The notes: a model not told the origin generated them from the sequence alone. Shown: positions 10,758 to 19,812, counted from the first letter of the stretch. The stretch is DNA of 64,000 nt from Piedraia hortae CBS 480.64 (GCA_010093745.1 MU005986.1:124001-188000); one strand, 5' to 3'. Numbers and translations: made by a program.

Positions 10758-11759
10758 TCAAGAGTCTACCATTGCGGTATCTGTATCGCCGCCCACTGCA
10801 CTGCTAAGAAAGATCTTCTCCTTTGTTGTGGCAGCCATCAGCCCCATCTCATCTTCCACTGTAATCTTTTCAGCTGCCTTGACGGCCTGTTCCAAATCTG
10901 CTGGTCGACTGCTCAAGTTCTCCCTCAGCTCAAGAGCACTGCGTAGATTCTTGGTCCTGTACTTCACGTCTTCAGTTGCTCGATTTGTTTTTCTTGCAGC
11001 GTCCTGGATTTGCGAGGTGGTGTAGTCTCTGTTAGAAGAAAGCGGTGTGGAGGAAAGAGTCTGCACCCAGTATTTATTCCATAGACTTTGCAGTAGCTTA
11101 CTTTCGAGCGTGGATTTGAAGTGTGATACCTCCAGGCTATAGTAGAGGTGAGCAAAAGCACCAAAATCTGCTGCTTTGTCTGTGCGGATTGTAGCTGCGC
11201 CGGTGTATCTTTCTGTTGCCTTGTGCCCCTCGGGATACGTTCGAAAGGCACCAATATCAACCTTGCCCGAGCTGACGGTGCGATGTGGGTCGATGACGAC
11301 GGCAACCATAGGCCCGCTGTACTGTTGGAGAACCTGGGTATCGATATCGATCTTGCTCAGCCAACACCCGTAACCCGGATGGCTATGATACCAGCCGACA
11401 ACATTCTCAACCTGCCCAGCCTGCCGAGCGCTATCAAGAAAGGTAATCAGGTACTCGTTTGCTTCATCTTGCGCGTTCACTCGGGTTTCAGTGCCCTCTA
11501 CGGGAAGTCGCAAGGCATCCGTAACGATAAACGTCTCGTGCTGCACGTGGCCCTGCATGAGGCCCATGACCTCCATATCTCTGCCAGATCGCGCGTGCAT
11601 TACCATCTTGACATATGCAACGGCCGATATACGGACATTTTTGAAGTGCGTTGGGTCGCTCTTCCACGGTGCTTTGTCCGTCAATTCTTTTACTGCGGCA
11701 GCATCATAGTTGTAAAGGGCATCGCGGTCGGCATCGACCAGGCTAAATCCATCGCCCAT
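10758..11759 (-). CDS. CSN5: COP9 signalosome subunit 5 (JAMM deneddylase)
   Basis: [50 protein letters not shown] motif; first ATG at 11759. Confidence 0.95.
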
Positions 11760-12201
11760 TTTCCGATAGCAGTCAGTCGCGGCTAATACTGATCTGCTCG
11801 CATCGAAACTGTGGAAGGTAAAAGCTCGCGTTACGTAAGCAGGTGAGGTTTGCCTTGGGCTCACTGACCCAAGTGCCCCACCACACAAACAAATTTCCAG
11901 TGGCGATTTTGAGTTCCAAACCCTAAAGCCATTGGTGGGTCAAAACATAAAGGCAACGGTTTCTGAAAGAAGTTAACCCCGGTGTGCAAAGGTGAAATGT
12001 TTTGTTATTGTTAGTTGAAATCGTGAATTGGCTACTGTTAGAATCAGTAATGATGGCATAGGATGGACCAGCAATGATTTCAAGGGCACAAGGTTGCAAC
12101 GGTGATAACTAGCAAACGAATATATCAATGAACGGACGGGTGGATCCTGCTATTATTTCTTCACACCTTCGTCTGAAAACATAGAGCATGCCTATAAGAC
12201 C

Positions 12202-12612
12202 TTAATGGAAATCACAGATGCAAGTACTGGAAACATGATGACAGTATGTGTGACATTTTTACGGGCAAGGTAATGCTCACCTGCGGAGAAATCCACCGCA
12301 ATGGCCACCCGTCCGTCCTCCCTTCAGGGTGAGGCACTGCTCTCTGTCAGCAGCGGAGATGTCTCTTAGGCGATACCAAGTAGGGAAGGCTTACGCGATC
12401 AATGCAGCCTTGTGGATAGATTGAACATATAGTATTGCGTTTCATAAGTTCAGGGTCGTGCTTAAGCAGAAGTTCATTAAATTCGGCTTGAAGTTCCTAC
12501 GAGACTTGATAGTCGTCGTCGACGACGGCATCGACGCTACTCTCAGCGACAGGAGCAGCATCTGCAAGAAGGGCGAAAAGGGAAGAAGAGCAAATATCTT
12601 GGTGAACTGCAT
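12202..12612 (-). pseudogene. Defensin paralogue 1 (pseudogene), 3 exons 12612-12395, 12336-12281, 12226-12202
   Basis: Aligns to the two intact copies; GT-AG introns at the same positions; 1-nt deletion near 12579 in the signal peptide and TAG at 12497-12499 in the propeptide; reconstructed mature NTICSIYPQGCIDRCLTLKGGRTGGHCGGFLRSTCICDFH keeps 6 Cys. Confidence 0.88.
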
Positions 12613-12965
12613 GACTGCTAATGTAGTCGACTTAGCAAAGTGTGTGGAAGGACCTCTGTTTGGTGGAGAGAGACATCGGCCGTCTTATATCTTGATCCTT
12701 TCAAGTTAAGCATCCAGATCCTTGTCTCCAAGACCCGAAGTAGAAAGTGGTTACCAACATTCTTTGTATCCTGACTCGATTCTTAACTGCTCAGAGTTCG
12801 AATTGTCTTCGCAAGTTATGGACTCCGCGAGTCATGATACCAATGCCAAAATACCAACAGACCGTGAATACAAAGCTTGGGCTGAAAACGCGCCACTGTA
12901 TTGTCTATACTACGATGAGATTAACCAACAAACATCATGAAAACATGAGCCGACCATGACTCGAT
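12613..12965 (-). promoter_or_regulatory. Upstream block of defensin copy 1, homologous to those of copies 2 and 3
   Basis: Reverse complement contains TGGTCGGCTCATGTTT, TTGGTTAA, TACAGTGGCG, TTGGTATTTTGGCATT and TATAAGACGGCCG, blocks also seen upstream of copy 2 and/or copy 3. Confidence 0.7.
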
Positions 12966-13964
12966 TGCCCTGCAAAATTGGACTTTGTATCTGCATCGCT
13001 CATTCTGAAGAATCTATGACATCACGAAGGCCAGTTTCTCATGTCGGTATTCCATCCACAAAGGTTGAAGTGACATCACTATAGCATAAACCGTGCGTAA
13101 TTGTAGTCGTGACCATGGCTTAACGTTGGTCTTGAACTCTGCGACAAGCACAACGAACCTCCTACCAATCTTGGGGTTGCGAGGGAGCTGGGATCGTGGC
13201 TACACAGTCTAACAAAATGCCTTACAACTGTTCAGGATAGCTAGTTGTGGTTTGATCCGTTTTAGACGCTATTTGCAATTGCGGGACCAGTGGCGTGGAG
13301 ATTTTAAAGGTGGCGGTCCACCACACCTCTCCAGAAAGAGTAGTGGATGCGGAGCCACAACCGCGGATGCAGGATAACAGTTGCCCTCGCTAACACGGCC
13401 AAAGGCTGCTCCACTCGGAACTTTTGGAAGATCGTTGGGTGGCGCTGAAGGATGAAGCGAAGGATGTGGAGGAGAGTGACACATTTGCCTCGTTTACACA
13501 TATCATACGTCATGGTAAGCACTCCACAATGACATGAGCATCGTCAATGGCGGATTAGCTATGGATGCTAACGAGGTGGAGTAATGCAAGCCTACGAACT
13601 AGTTTAAGAGTTTACAAGCTCTTGGTTTTGACCAACAGTAGACTTTGGCTCGCAAGATTATCTTTGGCTTGTGTGTGTTTGATCCCACAGGGAATTCATA
13701 GATAGTTGGTTTATTCCAGTCTGATTCATGTATACACTGAGCATTTCTGACGTGAAGTCTATTCTCTACAGCTGGGGGTTCGAATGCGTGGATGTATCCG
13801 TATTCGGTGTTTTGCCTTTCTTTAGACTTGCTCCGGTCAAAAGACATGTCGAACTGCAAGGTAACAATCCTATGACCATCCAACTTGGATTCGCGATCCT
13901 CGGCACACGTTTTGAGAGGCAGAAATATATGGTACAGATCGCAACAGCCGATATTACTTCGAGT

Positions 13965-14318
13965 CCATTGAGTAATGGTCGGCTCATGTTTCCACAATAG
14001 TTGTTGGTTAACCTTGTCCTCGCAACAAAGAGTACAGTGGCGTATGCTCGTCCAAACTGTTTGTTGGTATCTTGGCATTTGAATTGCGTCATCATCCGGA
14101 AGCCAGGAATTTTCTAAGTGGTTTCAAAGACATCCAGGCTGCAGAGGATGTTGGTAACCAAGCTTCACATGGCGTTGTGAGGACCAAGATCCTGATCACA
14201 AGCTTGGCGAGATTCTGATATAAAATGACCAGTTTCCCTCCCTCATGGACCATCTCGCTCACCCACTCCAACAAGCAATAACAACTACCACTCTGCTCAA
14301 TCGAGTATATTAGCAACC
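13965..14318 (+). promoter_or_regulatory. Upstream block of defensin copy 2 with TATA-like box
   Basis: TGGTCGGCTCATGTTT, TTGGTTAA, TACAGTGGCG, AAGCTTGGCGAGATTCTG then TATAAAA at ~14219. Confidence 0.7.
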
Positions 14319-14729
14319 ATGCAGTTCACCAAGATCTTTGCTCTTCTCCCCGTCCTTGCTCTTCTTGCGGGCGCTGCTCCTGTTGCTGACGTCGCGGATG
14401 TCACCGATGTCGACGACGGCAACCTCATCTCTGAGGACCTCCAAGCTGAGGTGAATAATCTTCTGATCAAGCGTGACCCCGAAATCGTGAAGCGTGGATT
14501 CGGATGTCCCCTCTTTCGTCAGCAGTGCAATGATCACGTAAGTAGCCAATCATTTGATTCTGCCTGAGATATACCGGGAGCTGACAAAGAGCAGTGTATC
14601 TCATTGAAAGGAGGACGTACGGGTGGATATTGCTCTGGAACCTTCCGCCTGTGAGCAACCCTTGGCCCGTAGAGATATCACCAATGCTAATCTTGTGTTT
14701 CCAGGACTTGCACGTGCGTCTTCGGTTAA
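14319..14729 (+). CDS. Secreted CS-alpha-beta defensin precursor, copy 2 (plectasin/eurocin-like); exons 14319-14537, 14595-14650, 14705-14729
   Basis: Signal peptide MQFTKIFALLPVLALLAGA, acidic propeptide ending in KR, spliced mature peptide GFGCPLFRQQCNDHCISLKGGRTGGYCSGTFRLTCTCVFG with C..CxxxC..GxC..CxC; canonical gtaagt/gtgagc donors and ctgac/ctaat branch points. Confidence 0.95.
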
Positions 14730-15612
14730 GGCTCTACAAGTTTCTTCTCAGACAAGTATGTTAAGAAAAGAAATTTGGCAGGATCGGCCGTCCATTCCTT
14801 TAGTGATAGTTTTTTTGTCAGTTACTGTATCATCGTTGCAACGCTTTGCCTTCAAGTCATTGCTAATTTGTCACTTGCCATTGTAATAAGAACTTCCTGG
14901 ATGATTTCTTCCCTTTTCCATCAATTGCGGCCATAGAAGTCGGTCCCCACGGTGTGCACTATGCCACTCTGTGCACACCTTCAATCAGCCTCATATGCTA
15001 CCAATTCATAACGATGACCTTGACATCAAAATATCGACCGACATTTAGTCACAATGCGTGTTGCTATTTGCATCAAAGGAATAATGCACGCAGTGGTGCA
15101 GTACAACAACCCAGCCTACCCAGAACCGGGGCGTCGAGATGATCAACGAGTCGAGAGGCAGTTCCTGTTGGCCAATAGCCAATGGAGTGCACGCTGCACA
15201 AGCTGGCAACTCTCGCCAATCGCGAGTCGGTACAACACGAGTTCTATAGTGCGGGGCGAATCCCTTGTTGGTGAGGGCGGCTAAACGCGGCTCATATCAC
15301 TACGCTCTTGTCCCGTGTTTTGTGAGCCGAGGAGGATCCAACACCTGCATCTGTCTTCACTCCTCCGACGCTATTCTATGCAGCCAACCACTTTACGCTG
15401 CAAACTCGGGAAGGGGTGCGGCTGAACATCCAGAACCGCTCTTCTAACGTGTGATTATTCAGCGGCAGAGTAAGCCGTGTATTGACATCATGTATGCCGT
15501 TAAGAGCTAAAGCCGCTACGCGGAACTAAATGAAGGAAGATGGATTGTCTCTTGAGGCAGTGTCACACTCGACGTCACTTCTGACGTCAGCAAAAACACA
15601 TGGCGATGTCAG

Positions 15613-15800
15613 GTGCATATCCTTCTTTGTTTGGTCCGTATTTGCAGCACCGAGGACTGGCCCCTCATGGCTATAGAGAGTGTGACAATGACGCTGAAAC
15701 CTACCGACTTCTTTGAGCGAAACACTACTCTCAACATGGCTTTGTCTAATGATGAAAGAGGCGTGTTGGCCGAGGGTTGCACCGCGATGGGGAATAGCAT
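15613..15800 (+). pseudogene. Relic of a copper amine oxidase C-terminus
   Basis: TEDWPLMAIESVTMTLKPTDFFERNTTLNMALS resembles the CAO C-terminal motif EDWPVMP.E...LKP..FF.RNP.LD; no intact upstream ORF. Confidence 0.6.
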
Positions 15801-17034
15801 AAATAGCACTGCGACATTCTCAACGAACAAGTTTTGGGTGGCGCTGAAGGATTAGGGGCGAAAGGACTCCATGGTCTCTATCGTGTCGGAAGAATCGACA
15901 AAGAGGGATTGGCCGTTAACGCCGGTGAGAGGGTTTGACGCATGTCTATGAGCCAAAGGGGAATTCACAAGCCCCTGGCTTTGACTGGAGGTGTGGTTTG
16001 GCTGGCGACATCTAGCATTGTTGTTTGCATCCATTGATGTTTCGAGGGAGCTCTGCAAACCTGGGGTAATCTCAACACAGCAGAAATTCCGGTAAAGGAG
16101 GGATCTCCTCGGCAATTTTCCCGTGAGCTCCCGTCCTGAAGATGCAAAGCCTTGCAATGAACGGAATGAAAATTTTGTGGACCTAGATGAAGTAATGTCA
16201 TCTATGACCTCGATCGTAGAGGACGTCTGAGCCGTATACGCTTGGCGACTCGAAAGGCCATACTCGCGCCTCACGTGTTGCCTATTGCGTGGACACTCGC
16301 CACAGCGGATGCAAGTCTGGGTAAACCCACAGTCTGGACTAGTAAGAACGCTCTCATGTTGCACACGGCGTGCTCTGGGACAGCGTGCATATTTTTGTAA
16401 GTGGCGGCGCAGATTACGCCAGTCATTGCATGATCCATGCTTCTGGAGGAAAAGAATTGGCCCGATGTCTGAACCGAAACCGAGTGCAGATATATCACGT
16501 GACATTTGCGCACAACTTCCCCATATATTTTGCGGGGAATAGGGAAAACCCTTGCAGGGAATTTGATTCGATTAGATTTTGTCAGTTGTAAAATCTAACT
16601 AAATTGTACGATGTAGTCTGAACCGTTTGCGTCTTGTTTTCCAATCCTTCTTGGGAACATGGTGAAACTGCATATAGACAGTTGCCTGTCAAATAGGCGG
16701 TTTATAGGCCGCCACGCGGATCAGAGAAATCCTATACGATGGAAAGTTGGTGTGGTTTGGCCGTATAGTCACACCGCTCATATAGTATCATGTATGTAAT
16801 GGGCATTCATTGCCGATCCGAATTCTGCCTTATGCAGCATATGTTTAATCCCGTAGTCTGTTCCATGTCCAGTGCTTTGCGTTTCGACCAACTCCCTCCC
16901 CAGGACATGTTGAATCGCATCACTTCTCTACCTAGCAAAGTAACAACTCCATGCCCATCCCACATTGATCCCTGAACCTCAGCATATGCCTTGATAGGCT
17001 AACATACAAGCTGCAATTATCGACCCTTCCTCGT

Positions 17035-17397
17035 GGCCATTGAGTAGTGGTCAGTTCACGTTTCCAAAATGGTTGATTAACCTTATCCTTGCATTAAATA
17101 GTACAGTGGCGCACGCTTGGCCCAATCATTGTACTTACACTCTGGATGGCATTCCATCCTGGTGACTTCACATGCTAGGATAATTCGACCTTTTGAGTAG
17201 TTACAGAGCGAACCAGGCTGCATATGATGTTGGTGACCAGTCTCCACATTTAGTCGTAGGGGAAAGGATATTGATCCCAAGCTTGGCGAGATTCTGGTAT
17301 AAGACGGCCGGATGTCCCCCCCTCAAGGGCCACCTCACTCGCAAACCTCAACAAGCAAATCAATTACCAATCTACCCAATTGACTTCATCAGCAATC
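17035..17397 (+). promoter_or_regulatory. Upstream block of defensin copy 3
   Basis: CCATTGAGTAGTGGTC, TTGATTAACCTT, GTACAGTGGCG, AAGCTTGGCGAGATTCTGGTATAAGACGGCCG shared with copies 1 and/or 2. Confidence 0.7.
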
Positions 17398-17787
17398 ATG
17401 AAGTTCACCAACGTCTTTGCTCTTCTTCCAGTCTTCGCTCTTCTTGCGGGCGCCGCTCCTGTCGCTGACGCCGACGACGGCTATCAAATCTCGGAAGACC
17501 TCCAGGCTGAGGTGAATGACCTTCTGACCAAGCGCGACCCCGAAATCGTGAAGCGTGGATTCGGATGTCCCCTCTTTCGTCAGCAGTGCAATGATCACGT
17601 AAGTAGTCAATCCTTGATTCTGCCTGAGATATACCGGGAACTGACAAAGAGCAGTGTATCTCATTGAAAGGAGGACGTACGGGTGGATATTGCTCTGGAA
17701 CGTTCCGCACGTGAGCATATGCTTGCCTGTGAAGATGTCACCAATGCTGACCCCGTGTTTAGGACTTGCACGTGCGTCTTCGGTTAA
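17398..17787 (+). CDS. Secreted CS-alpha-beta defensin precursor, copy 3; exons 17398-17598, 17655-17710, 17763-17787
   Basis: Signal peptide MKFTNVFALLPVFALLAGA, acidic propeptide-KR, mature GFGCPLFRQQCNDHCISLKGGRTGGYCSGTFRTTCTCVFG; same intron positions as copy 2. Confidence 0.95.
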
Positions 17788-18528
17788 AGATTCACAGTCA
17801 TAGCCTCGGGCAGGTGAGTTGAGAAGATATAGGCAGGATCCGGCCGTCCACTCGTTTGATAGTTTTTTATGTCAGTCTCCACCGTTGCAACGCTATGCTT
17901 GGAGCCTGTTGCAGGCTAATCTTGTGCCATTGCAGTATGAAGCATTTGAATAAGTAAGTTAGAGTTTCCTCAAAGATACGATAGGGTTTTCTCCCTGTGG
18001 ATTGCAAACGTGTTTCATTTTGAGCAATGTGCAATGTGAGTGCGCCGAAACAGGTGTTCACAATGCTACAATTTCGTCGAATGTTGTTGAGTGACGTCCC
18101 AAGTGGATTGGGACGGCGCAGATTGAGAGGTGCACCTCCGATCTGTACAAACATGACCTCGCAGAATACTATCCAAAATATCAATGAAACAGCATCAGCG
18201 ATCCTTCTATCACTGTATCAATTAACAACCCACCTGGTCCCTGCAATAGAAAACTCTTGGTTGATATGTATGTCCGAGCAAGGGTTCCTCATTTTTGAGT
18301 CAGACAGGTCCTTGCAAATACCTTTGAGGGTTCGATAAAAACCATCTCGCTCGACAACGGTCTACAGGTTTCACTCACTGTCACATCCCGAAATCAAGAG
18401 CAACTACGCCTTGTCTCATGATGTTCTGTGTGCAATCGCCCCCTGTGGCCGCTATGGGTACTCCTACTTATTAATCGCAACTACTACACTGCAAAGTGAA
18501 AAATCCACCCAACGCCATGCTAACCCAT

Positions 18529-19812
18529 TTATTGCTGCTGACATTGCATTCCCTCAGCACCGTCTTCATCCTCCCACTCCGCACCACCTCTGGGATCACC
18601 TGAGCCTGCACCGAAATCCTCCATAGACCCTTCCTCAAAGGCAACCTCGTCCACCTCTTCTGGCTCTTCATCAACAGCATGAATCTCATCCTTTGGCAAA
18701 ACAGCACGAACAGCATCTACAGCAGCCTGATCCTCGAGCCAACCATCCTCGGGGAATTTAATCACAACGGTGAAGTAAAGATCACCTTTGAGCTCCGACT
18801 TCTTAATAGGCATGCCCTCGCCACGCACGCGGAGAACCTCACCGGGCCGGAGGACCTTGCCTTTAGGCTGGGTGACGTGCAGCTTAATACCCCTACCATC
18901 GAGGTGAGTGAGTACGACTCTGTCAAAGCCCGTAAGGGCCTCTGCTAGGGTAATATTTAGATCAGCCTGAAGGTCAGGACCTGCGCGAGCAAAGGTCTCA
19001 TGTTGCACCTCGACCAGAGTGAAGATGATATCGCCCGGTTCGTCGTCTTCGGGAGTCTGGTCTGCTTCGCCTTTGAGAACTATTCTGTCGCCTTCGCAGC
19101 TGCCACGCGGAATGTACAACTCCAAAAGCTTCTTCTGCTTAACTGTTCGCTCGCCCTTGCATTTCTTGCATTTATCTTTGTCGACGTAGAAGCTGCCCTT
19201 GCCGTGACATGTACTGCACGGTACCGTCTCCTGTGTGACGAGACCCGGACCGACAGGCCTCAGCCGCGACGTCATGCCTCGTCCCTTACAGCTGTCACAT
19301 TCCTTGGCCTTGGCCTTTTCCTTTCCACCAGACCCTTTGCAGTGGTCGCAGATAACGTTCTTTGTGCTTGAAAACTTGGTTGTCTTGCCCTTGTACAACT
19401 CGGCGAGGGTGACTTCGTATTGCTGGACTTCGCTGCGTCCTTTGGGATGACGTCTGGGGCCAGTAGGTCCGCCGGGCATGGAGCCACCCTGGCCAAACAT
19501 TTGCGCGAGGAAGTCGTCGAGGTCTGGGCCAGCACCGCCGGGGAATCCGGCATTGGCTTTATCAAATGCAGCCATACCATGTTGGTCATAGAGCGCGCGG
19601 TTATTATCATCACTGAGAATCTCATACGCGCGCGAAATGCTCTTGAATTTGATTTCCGCGCTCTCGCGTTCTTCCTGGGGGACTTTATCTGGATGGTTTG
19701 CAAGAGCCGCCTTGTGATAAGCACGTTTGATCTCGCTCTTTGACGCTGTACGCGAGATTTGGAGCACCTCATAGAGATCCTGCTCTTCTTCTTTCCCCTT
19801 GCTGGCGTCCAT
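18529..19812 (-). CDS. Type I DnaJ co-chaperone (Xdj1/Ydj1/Mas5-like), CaaX-terminated
   Basis: J domain with HPD, four CxxCxGxG-type zinc motifs, C-terminal CQQQ; ATG at 19812. Confidence 0.92.
   Translation of the reverse strand: MDASKGKEEEQDLYEVLQISRTASKSEIKRAYHKAALANHPDKVPQEERESAEIKFKSISRAYEILSDDNNRALYDQHGMAAFDKANAGFPGGAGPDLDDFLAQMFGQGGSMPGGPTGPRRHPKGRSEVQQYEVTLAELYKGKTTKFSSTKNVICDHCKGSGGKEKAKAKECDSCKGRGMTSRLRPVGPGLVTQETVPCSTCHGKGSFYVDKDKCKKCKGERTVKQKKLLELYIPRGSCEGDRIVLKGEADQTPEDDEPGDIIFTLVEVQHETFARAGPDLQADLNITLAEALTGFDRVVLTHLDGRGIKLHVTQPKGKVLRPGEVLRVRGEGMPIKKSELKGDLYFTVVIKFPEDGWLEDQAAVDAVRAVLPKDEIHAVDEEPEEVDEVAFEEGSMEDFGAGSGDPRGGAEWEDEDGAEGMQCQQQ

Follow-up and report, generated by a model that had tools for sequence, protein, structure and literature searches.

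Analysis of a 64,000-nucleotide (nt) stretch of the genome of Piedraia hortae CBS 480.64 (GCA_010093745.1 MU005986.1:124001-188000), hereafter the window, revealed a small cluster of defensin genes at positions 11760-18528, the interval between the start of the gene for COP9 signalosome subunit 5 (CSN5) and the stop of a gene for a type-I DnaJ (Hsp40) protein. The cluster consists of two intact genes (copies 2 and 3) and a disabled, divergent third (copy 1), rather than the three-copy cluster given in a preliminary description of the locus. Most probably, the interval holds a locally duplicated family of cysteine-stabilized alphabeta (CSalphabeta) defensins, made as prepropeptides, whose mature peptide with a charge of +3 would bind lipid II and act against Gram-positive competitors on hair. 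The two peptides are new, uncharacterised members of a known family, of the eurocin/micasin type within the ancient invertebrate-type group.

Both intact genes contain three exons separated by short GT..AG introns (57 and 54 nt in copy 2; 56 and 52 nt in copy 3) with branch-like motifs (CTGAC or CTAAT). The open coding sequences of copies 2 and 3 measure 300 nt (99 amino acids, aa) and 282 nt (93 aa), respectively, and the spliced models are letter for letter the deposited P. hortae CBS 480.64 proteins K470DRAFT_86688 and K470DRAFT_258354, which are labelled 'hypothetical protein' at NCBI and 'Invertebrate defensins...' in UniRef. As read from the sequence only, the precursor has a hydrophobic N-terminus and an acidic spacer, and Lys-Arg (KR) stands directly before GFGC. 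The mature peptides following KR have 40 residues, six cysteines spaced C-x6-C-x3-C-x11-C-x7-C-x-C in both copies, and a net charge of +3; the single difference between them is Leu or Thr at residue 33. The helix-coding part is interrupted by intron 1, a phase-0 intron placed behind the His codon; with an exon 2 of 56 nt, intron 2, in the c-loop, is in phase 2. The preliminary description had assigned a three-exon gene and a 40-residue, six-cysteine, +3 peptide to every unit, which copies 2 and 3 bear out and copy 1 does not, and had correctly reported that only exon 1 of copies 2 and 3 is visible in the list of open reading frames (ORFs). The ratio of non-synonymous to synonymous divergence (dN/dS) between copies 2 and 3 was 0.22 in the prepro part. 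The propeptide of copy 2 carries 18 extra nt relative to copy 3, at 14391-14408 in a repetitive stretch coding for Asp-Val, which looks like the product of replication slippage.

Contigs of the locus were found in two public runs, X1, which is DNA and possibly the source of the assembly, and X2, whose type was guessed as RNA. Copy 3 is transcribed, spliced as predicted and polyadenylated: one X2 contig has joints 17598>17655 and 17710>17763, both GT..AG and exactly at the two introns whose junctions had been predicted earlier, and a loose end of 24 A lies behind position 17895, giving a 3' untranslated region of ~108 nt. These splice joints and the A-tail argue that X2 holds RNA. In the region of copy 1, X2 left 11890-12552 uncovered and covered hardly any of 12553-12773, which is no evidence that this copy is silent; depth is given per contig and is unusable for ranking the copies. 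Another X2 contig skips 81 nt at 14796-14878, in the 3' flank of copy 2 (ends CC..TG, short side 28), and a second one (14769-14907) runs straight through the same positions; the skip may stem from a deletion in the strain, unusual splicing or the assembly.

Assignment to the defensins was obtained with Pfam family Defensin_2 (PF01097), which matched both proteins over positions 1-34 of its 34 at 33.0 and 34.0 bits (cut-off 20.4). The scorpion-toxin alpha/beta model PF14866 (25.1 and 25.9 bits; cut-off 27) and the gamma-thionin model PF00304 (18.1 and 17.2 bits; cut-off 25.1) stayed under their cut-offs. Both intact copies have the cystine framework C1...C2xxxC3...C4...C5xC6, the six-cysteine framework of fungal defensin-like peptides as defined in the accessible text of PMC5234102, with predicted disulfide pairing C1-C4, C2-C5 and C3-C6. 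Comparison with solved structures ranked eurocin first, followed by micasin, MGD-1 (mussel), actinomycesin and BmKDfsin3 (scorpion). An AlphaFold2 model based on 67 relatives reached a predicted local distance difference test score (pLDDT) of 90-93 for the mature part and contains one helix (67-76) and two strands (81-87 and 93-98). The seven best rows of a Foldseek comparison of this model with the PDB were all CSalphabeta defensins (micasin, MGD-1, actinomycesin and forms of plectasin), with template-modelling scores by target of 0.63-0.80 and root-mean-square deviations (rmsd) of 1.2-2.6 A. The locus had been described as plectasin/eurocin-like; the family match and eurocin as best solved relative support this, as does the GGRTGGYC stretch, which is indeed common to the P. 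hortae peptides and eurocin, but the sequence match to plectasin is weak (E 0.045). With introns in the helix and the c-loop, the genes do not match the Zytrisin-type organisation, in which, according to the available part of PMC5234102, the Zytrisins of Zymoseptoria have one intron in phase 0 where the signal peptide ends and another, in phase 2, in the Cys4 codon.

In the proposed mechanism, an N-terminal signal peptide would direct secretion, the acidic propeptide would be removed at KR by a Kex2-type protease, and the 40-residue peptide would fold into a helix and a two-strand sheet with three disulfides. By analogy with plectasin, it may bind the pyrophosphate and D-gamma-Glu part of lipid II through the GFGC backbone, the His before Cys3 and Cys5, and this binding would block cell-wall synthesis in Gram-positive competitors on hair. 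The hydrogen-bond network between plectasin and lipid II comprises the N-terminus, Phe2, Gly3, Cys4, His18 and Cys37 (PMC8877149, accessible text), and copies 2 and 3 carry the corresponding residues G1-F2-G3-C4, H14 and C35; likewise R32 corresponds to the basic c-loop residue that PMC5234102, in the part available, gives as important for antibacterial members. Lipid II binding by both peptides is thereby suggested, and a role against Gram-positive hair bacteria is plausible because P. hortae grows on human hair.

Several points weigh against this interpretation. We infer secretion, processing at KR, activity and lipid II binding, and the signal peptide and Kex2 site are predictions. Plectasin, for which lipid II binding was worked out, is the relative with the weak sequence match, and the E-values from Foldseek were all >0.001 (best 7.5e-3), as expected for 40 residues and formally weak. 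The type of the X2 run is a guess, though the joints and the A-tail argue for RNA; no splice joints of copy 2 are listed among its contigs, and one contig (14689-14798) has the last 16 nt of copy 2 intron 2 beside exon 3. The contigs are unable to assign splicing to copy 2 because the junction of exons 1 and 2 is identical in copies 2 and 3. Bases that tell the two copies apart stand at 14642 and 14649-14650 in copy 2, corresponding to 17702 and 17709-17710 in copy 3. In addition, the accessible text of PMC5234102 describes fungal peptides with the defensin fold that lack antibacterial activity, such as Zytrisin-1, and classical insect-type members that regulate fungal growth. Such non-antibacterial or growth-regulating peptides, together with a fungal defensin on record as blocking potassium channels (PMC13199095, in the part accessible) and the sub-threshold Pfam matches to scorpion-toxin and gamma-thionin models, would fit a defensin fold with a job other than lipid II, for instance control of growth or development in the fungus itself, an antifungal effect or block of ion channels. 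We consider this unlikely, since the nearest relatives, eurocin and micasin, are named as antibacterial fungal members in the available text of PMC8877149, the GFGC N-terminus, the His before Cys3 and the basic c-loop residue are all kept, and both scorpion-toxin scores lie under the cut-off.

Self-BLASTN analysis revealed three homologous gene units of ~0.9-1.0 kb, one of them inverted, at places agreeing to within ~100 nt with those reported earlier. The units of copies 2 and 3 are direct repeats with 74% identity over 1013 nt (E 1.8e-177), and positions 12070-12642 of copy 1 matched, in inverted orientation, copy 2 at 14289-14864 (68%, E 1e-47) and copy 3 at 17382-17891 (68%, E 4e-46). No fourth copy was found by window-wide tblastn with both proteins (best other match E 0.14). 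Of the local amplification under birth-and-death evolution that had been proposed, amplification with gain and loss was recovered, in the form of two live copies and one disabled copy.

Identity between copies 2 and 3 was 68% in the promoter, 74% in the 5' leader, 86% in the signal peptide and 87% in the propeptide, then 42/42 in the mature part of exon 1 and 53/56 in both intron 1 and exon 2, followed by 38/52 in intron 2, 25/25 in exon 3 and 65-68% in the 3' flank. The three mismatches among 56 positions of intron 1 contrast with a non-coding mismatch rate of 31% (binomial P = 2.5e-6), and synonymous divergence (dS) was 0.036 in the mature part versus 0.379 in the prepro part. Exon 3, identical at 25/25 with both flanks divergent, indicates that selection can hold short coding pieces identical, as would be required if purifying selection alone, with no gene conversion, had produced the near-identity of the mature parts; the conservation of intron 1 and the low synonymous divergence make this explanation rather improbable. 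A conversion tract of ~170 nt likely accounts for the pattern better than selection alone, and copies 2 and 3 originated from duplication of a ~1-kb unit, probably followed by exchange of this tract.

Copy 1 retains the exon lengths and GT..AG introns (58 and 54 nt) of the family and carries two lesions in exon 1: relative to the defensin frame, a 1-base deletion between 12580 and 12579 shifts the frame in the signal peptide, and an in-frame TAG stands at 12499-12497 in the propeptide. Its conceptual mature part keeps 6/6 cysteines and the GGRTGG loop, and 20/40 residues match copies 2 and 3. Among the substitutions, NTIC stands in place of GFGC, the His preceding Cys3 is Arg and the Tyr preceding Cys4 is His, so that F2, G3 and the His of the lipid II network are missing. 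The dN/dS against copies 2 and 3 was ~0.46-0.49 at dS ~0.9. This suggests that copy 1, an older paralogue, was maintained for a long time as a folded defensin, albeit with an altered N-terminus, and became disabled later.

A cryptic short intron in exon 1 could in principle drop the stop, restore the frame and leave copy 1 live; the product would be a divergent defensin whose N-terminus differs. No Cys codon of the six is lost despite 20/40 differing residues, the shifted N-terminus remains hydrophobic, and within exon 1, 3 of the 35 GT..AG candidates of at least 30 nt leave the frame open as far as the defensin stop, one of them 44 nt long and ending at the TAG. Three among 35 tries is about the chance level, the donor of the 44-nt candidate is poor (GTAGCG) and a clear branch site is lacking, and the residues matching the lipid II network are lost; such a rescue was rejected, and a live copy 1 is very improbable. 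An origin of the three copies from a single gene through an assembly artefact is hardly credible: the X1 Logan contigs break inside the near-identical tract and one has copy-2 letters in copy 3 intron 1 (17607, 17613 and 17640), as is typical of collapsed repeats and as results from the conversion tract, but the copies are 26-32% different outside the tract and have unique flanks, each is tied to its own flank by X1 contigs (which, if X1 was the source of the assembly, give no independent support), and the second sample, X2, matched at >=99% in 22 of 25 pieces.

The features of the interval and its flanks are collected in Table 1. The identification of CSN5 and a type-I DnaJ as flanking genes agreed with the Pfam matches. 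The GC content is 44-52% within the interval versus 50-59% in the flanks, a mild difference. An upstream block common to all three copies had a sliding identity of 0.75-0.83 versus 0.33-0.43 just downstream, toward the core promoter, and is a possible shared regulatory element; TATAAAA and TATAAGA upstream of copies 2 and 3 are candidate TATA boxes. A scan of the window for bacterial promoters and terminators found nothing, the bacterial models being unsuited to a fungus.

Table 1 Features of the defensin interval of P. hortae and its flanks, in window coordinates.
Feature	Position	Strand	Basis or remark
CSN5 (COP9 signalosome subunit 5) ORF, left flank	10758..11759	-	Pfam JAB 1.9e-29, CSN5_C 1.9e-16; start codon toward the interval
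Copy 1 unit: disabled divergent defensin paralogue with homologous upstream and downstream flanks	12070..12965	-	BLASTN 68%; inverted repeats I1-I7; three-way alignment
Copy 1 exon 3 + stop codon	12202..12226	-	After 54-nt GT..AG intron
Copy 1 exon 2	12281..12336	-	56 nt, same length as in copies 2 and 3
Copy 1 exon 1	12395..12612	-	Alignment columns 452 and ~533, three-frame translation; carries both lesions
Conserved upstream block, copy 1	12858-12965	-	Same block as in copy 2
Copy 2 unit (promoter, gene, 3' flank)	13856..14849	+	BLASTN vs copy 3; direct repeats D1-D8
Conserved upstream block, copy 2	13959..14056	+	~260-360 nt before ATG; common to all three copies; D6/D7 80-82%, I4 83%, I5 70%
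TATAAAA, copy 2 (candidate)	14219..14225	+	100 nt before ATG; read from sequence
Copy 2 exon 1	14319..14537	+	Predicted signal peptide, acidic propeptide ending KR, first 14 mature residues
Near-identical tract of copies 2 and 3, likely gene conversion	14475..14641 (copy 3: 17536-17701)	+	End of propeptide, mature exon 1, intron 1, most of exon 2
Copy 2 exon 2	14595..14650	+	After 57-nt phase-0 intron
Copy 2 exon 3 + stop codon	14705..14729	+	After 54-nt phase-2 intron
Copy 3 unit	16935..17898	+	BLASTN
Conserved upstream block, copy 3	17031-17125	+	D6/D7 80-82%
TATAAGA, copy 3 (candidate)	17298-17304	+	100 nt before ATG; read from sequence
Copy 3 exon 1	17398..17598	+	Spliced model; product is the deposited protein
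Copy 3 exon 2	17655..17710	+	Joint 17598>17655 in X2 contig, skips 56, GT..AG
Copy 3 exon 3 + stop codon	17763..17787	+	Joint 17710>17763 in X2, skips 52, GT..AG
Copy 3 poly(A) addition site	17895	+	Loose end of 24 A behind 17895 in X2; 3' untranslated region ~108 nt
Type-I DnaJ (Hsp40) ORF, right flank	18529..19812	-	Pfam DnaJ, DnaJ_CXXCXGXG, DnaJ_C; stop codon toward the interval

The interval had been said to be free of housekeeping genes, which stands; besides the defensin units, it contains an ORF of 217 aa between copies 2 and 3 (15852-16505, minus strand), which is long for chance and matched no Pfam family. The same protein is present letter for letter in the ESM Atlas, where its model is very poor (mean pLDDT 0.28) and yielded no usable structural look-alikes. 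An X2 contig spans 14878-16501, over this ORF. An exact 19-nt direct repeat (within ...GGGTGGCGCTGAAGGAT...) occurs at 13435-13453 and 15834-15852, the first in the spacer upstream of copy 2, the second in that separating copies 2 and 3; its spacing is 2399 nt, versus ~3070 nt for the gene units.

When 1.84 billion cluster representatives were scanned in full by HMMER, using a profile built from four sequences, 97 clusters were obtained at E <=0.001, including 18 at <=1e-10. The complete six-cysteine pattern was present in 65 of the 100 stored relatives, and 25 of the 35 incomplete ones, counted by eye, read '...HV...' through the same first intron. Many public models of fungal relatives are wrongly cut short or extended in this way, and the family is under-annotated in fungal and lichen genomes because of such read-through. 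Relatives occur in other Dothideomycetes, lichen fungi, dermatophytes and invertebrates. Nearest to copy 2 by identical mature residues were proteins of Acarospora aff. strigata (35/40) and Dothidotthia symphoricarpi (28), a 128-aa protein (28) and one of Flavoplaca limonia (26); other named relatives came from Bimuria, Squamulea, Aspergillus pseudoviridinutans, Trichophyton (triintsin and defensin-1), a tardigrade, ticks and oysters. In a tree of mature domains (35 rows, 40 columns; 3 of the 37 chosen relatives were dropped for an incomplete six-cysteine pattern), the three Piedraia copies grouped with Acarospora (Shimodaira-Hasegawa-like approximate likelihood ratio test, SH-aLRT, 89) inside a 13-row group (95); support was strong on 1 of 32 inner branches, which gives no basis for statements on transfer or the order of events. 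The Acarospora protein is nearer copy 2 than the Dothideomycete relatives found, despite belonging to a different class, and this likeness reflects either strong conservation or a contig of a co-assembled fungus.

The peptides had been expected to be new sequences. Both proteins are already in NCBI and UniRef, and the lichen-fungus protein shares 35/40 residues; what stood is that no identical solved or named defensin was found for copies 2 and 3, in a search that left antimicrobial-peptide databases and patent sequences outside. A text search of the literature found no paper naming P. hortae defensins or their K470DRAFT designations, or carrying a 15-residue stretch of the mature peptide, and among the papers listed on fungal defensin, lichen and plectasin none was relevant by title or abstract. 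The novelty is small, as both proteins are already public and are ordinary members of a well-studied family, and knowledge of the defensin family is unchanged by the locus. A wider proposal, which we put forward only tentatively and regard as doubtful, is that peptides with the KGGRTGGYC loop and CTCVFG end form a distinct antibacterial subgroup across Dothideomycetes and lichen-forming Lecanoromycetes, that the P. hortae locus was amplified and homogenised by gene conversion and serves as a main weapon against Gram-positive hair bacteria, in parallel to the dermatophyte defensins, and that copy 1 is what remains of a second paralogue directed at another target. If the subgroup were real, the ~88% mature conservation across classes (Piedraia versus Acarospora) would speak for either unusually strong constraint or transfer among fungi that dwell on rock, lichen and hair.

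Research on such fungal defensins treats them as leads against resistant Gram-positive bacteria, and derivatives of plectasin have been taken into clinical trials according to the accessible part of PMC13139365. The two natural variants, at least one of which is transcribed, add sequence diversity from a human-hair fungus, with ~64% of aligned residues shared with eurocin. According to the accessible text of PMC7082219, P. hortae ranks lowest of 101 Dothideomycetes in both genome size (16.95 Mb) and number of genes (7,572); of minor interest is that duplicated defensin genes are retained in the Dothideomycete with the lowest gene number, as they are in keratin-dwelling dermatophytes. The locus is also a compact example of duplication, probable gene conversion including an intron, and decay of one paralogue.

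Of the known systems with a solved structure, eurocin (Eurotium amstelodami, PDB 2lt8) matches best (E 4.4e-9, 25/39 aligned residues identical) and has in common with the P. hortae peptides a GFGCP start, a His before Cys3, GGRTGGYC, the TCTC end and the six-cysteine framework. It differs in having 42 residues, a c-loop 3 residues longer and other residues in the n-loop, whereas the P. hortae peptides end in VFG; ~36% of the aligned residues differ. Plectasin (Pseudoplectania nigrella, PDB 1zfu) shares the fold, the cystine framework and the conserved lipid II network positions, and the AlphaFold2 model superposes on plectasin variants with an rmsd of 1.1-1.3 A over 41 columns. Plectasin is nearly neutral and has a long acidic n-loop. 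Unlike it, the P. hortae peptides have a short n-loop and a charge of +3. Micasin and the dermatophyte defensins (Microsporum, Trichophyton; PDB 2lr5) matched at E 4.6e-7 with 19/37 residues identical, share the precursor layout predicted for the P. hortae peptides and come, like these, from producers on keratin (skin or hair). The micasin-type gene organisation, in which the helix is interrupted by a phase-0 intron and the c-loop by a phase-2 intron (PMC4165938, available text), is also that of copies 2 and 3. In contrast, micasin has an m-loop 2 residues shorter (GRKFG versus KGGRTGG in P. hortae) and a different C-terminus, and its producers are Eurotiomycetes, whereas P. hortae belongs to the Dothideomycetes.

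The proteins of Acarospora, Dothidotthia symphoricarpi, Bimuria novae-zelandiae and Flavoplaca limonia resemble the P. hortae peptides in the KGGRTGGYC loop and in ending with VFG or IFG, but have shorter propeptides, and all are uncharacterised hypothetical proteins. At the level of the locus, tandem defensin clusters with pseudogenes are described for Pyronema, Mortierella, Agaricus and Pochonia in the accessible part of PMC4165938. These clusters show local duplication, mixed orientation and pseudogene copies, as the P. hortae cluster does, and include paralogues whose mature peptides are identical but whose genes differ at synonymous sites. The P. hortae cluster differs in being smaller, with two live copies and one dead, and in having a mapped tract of likely conversion that includes an intron.

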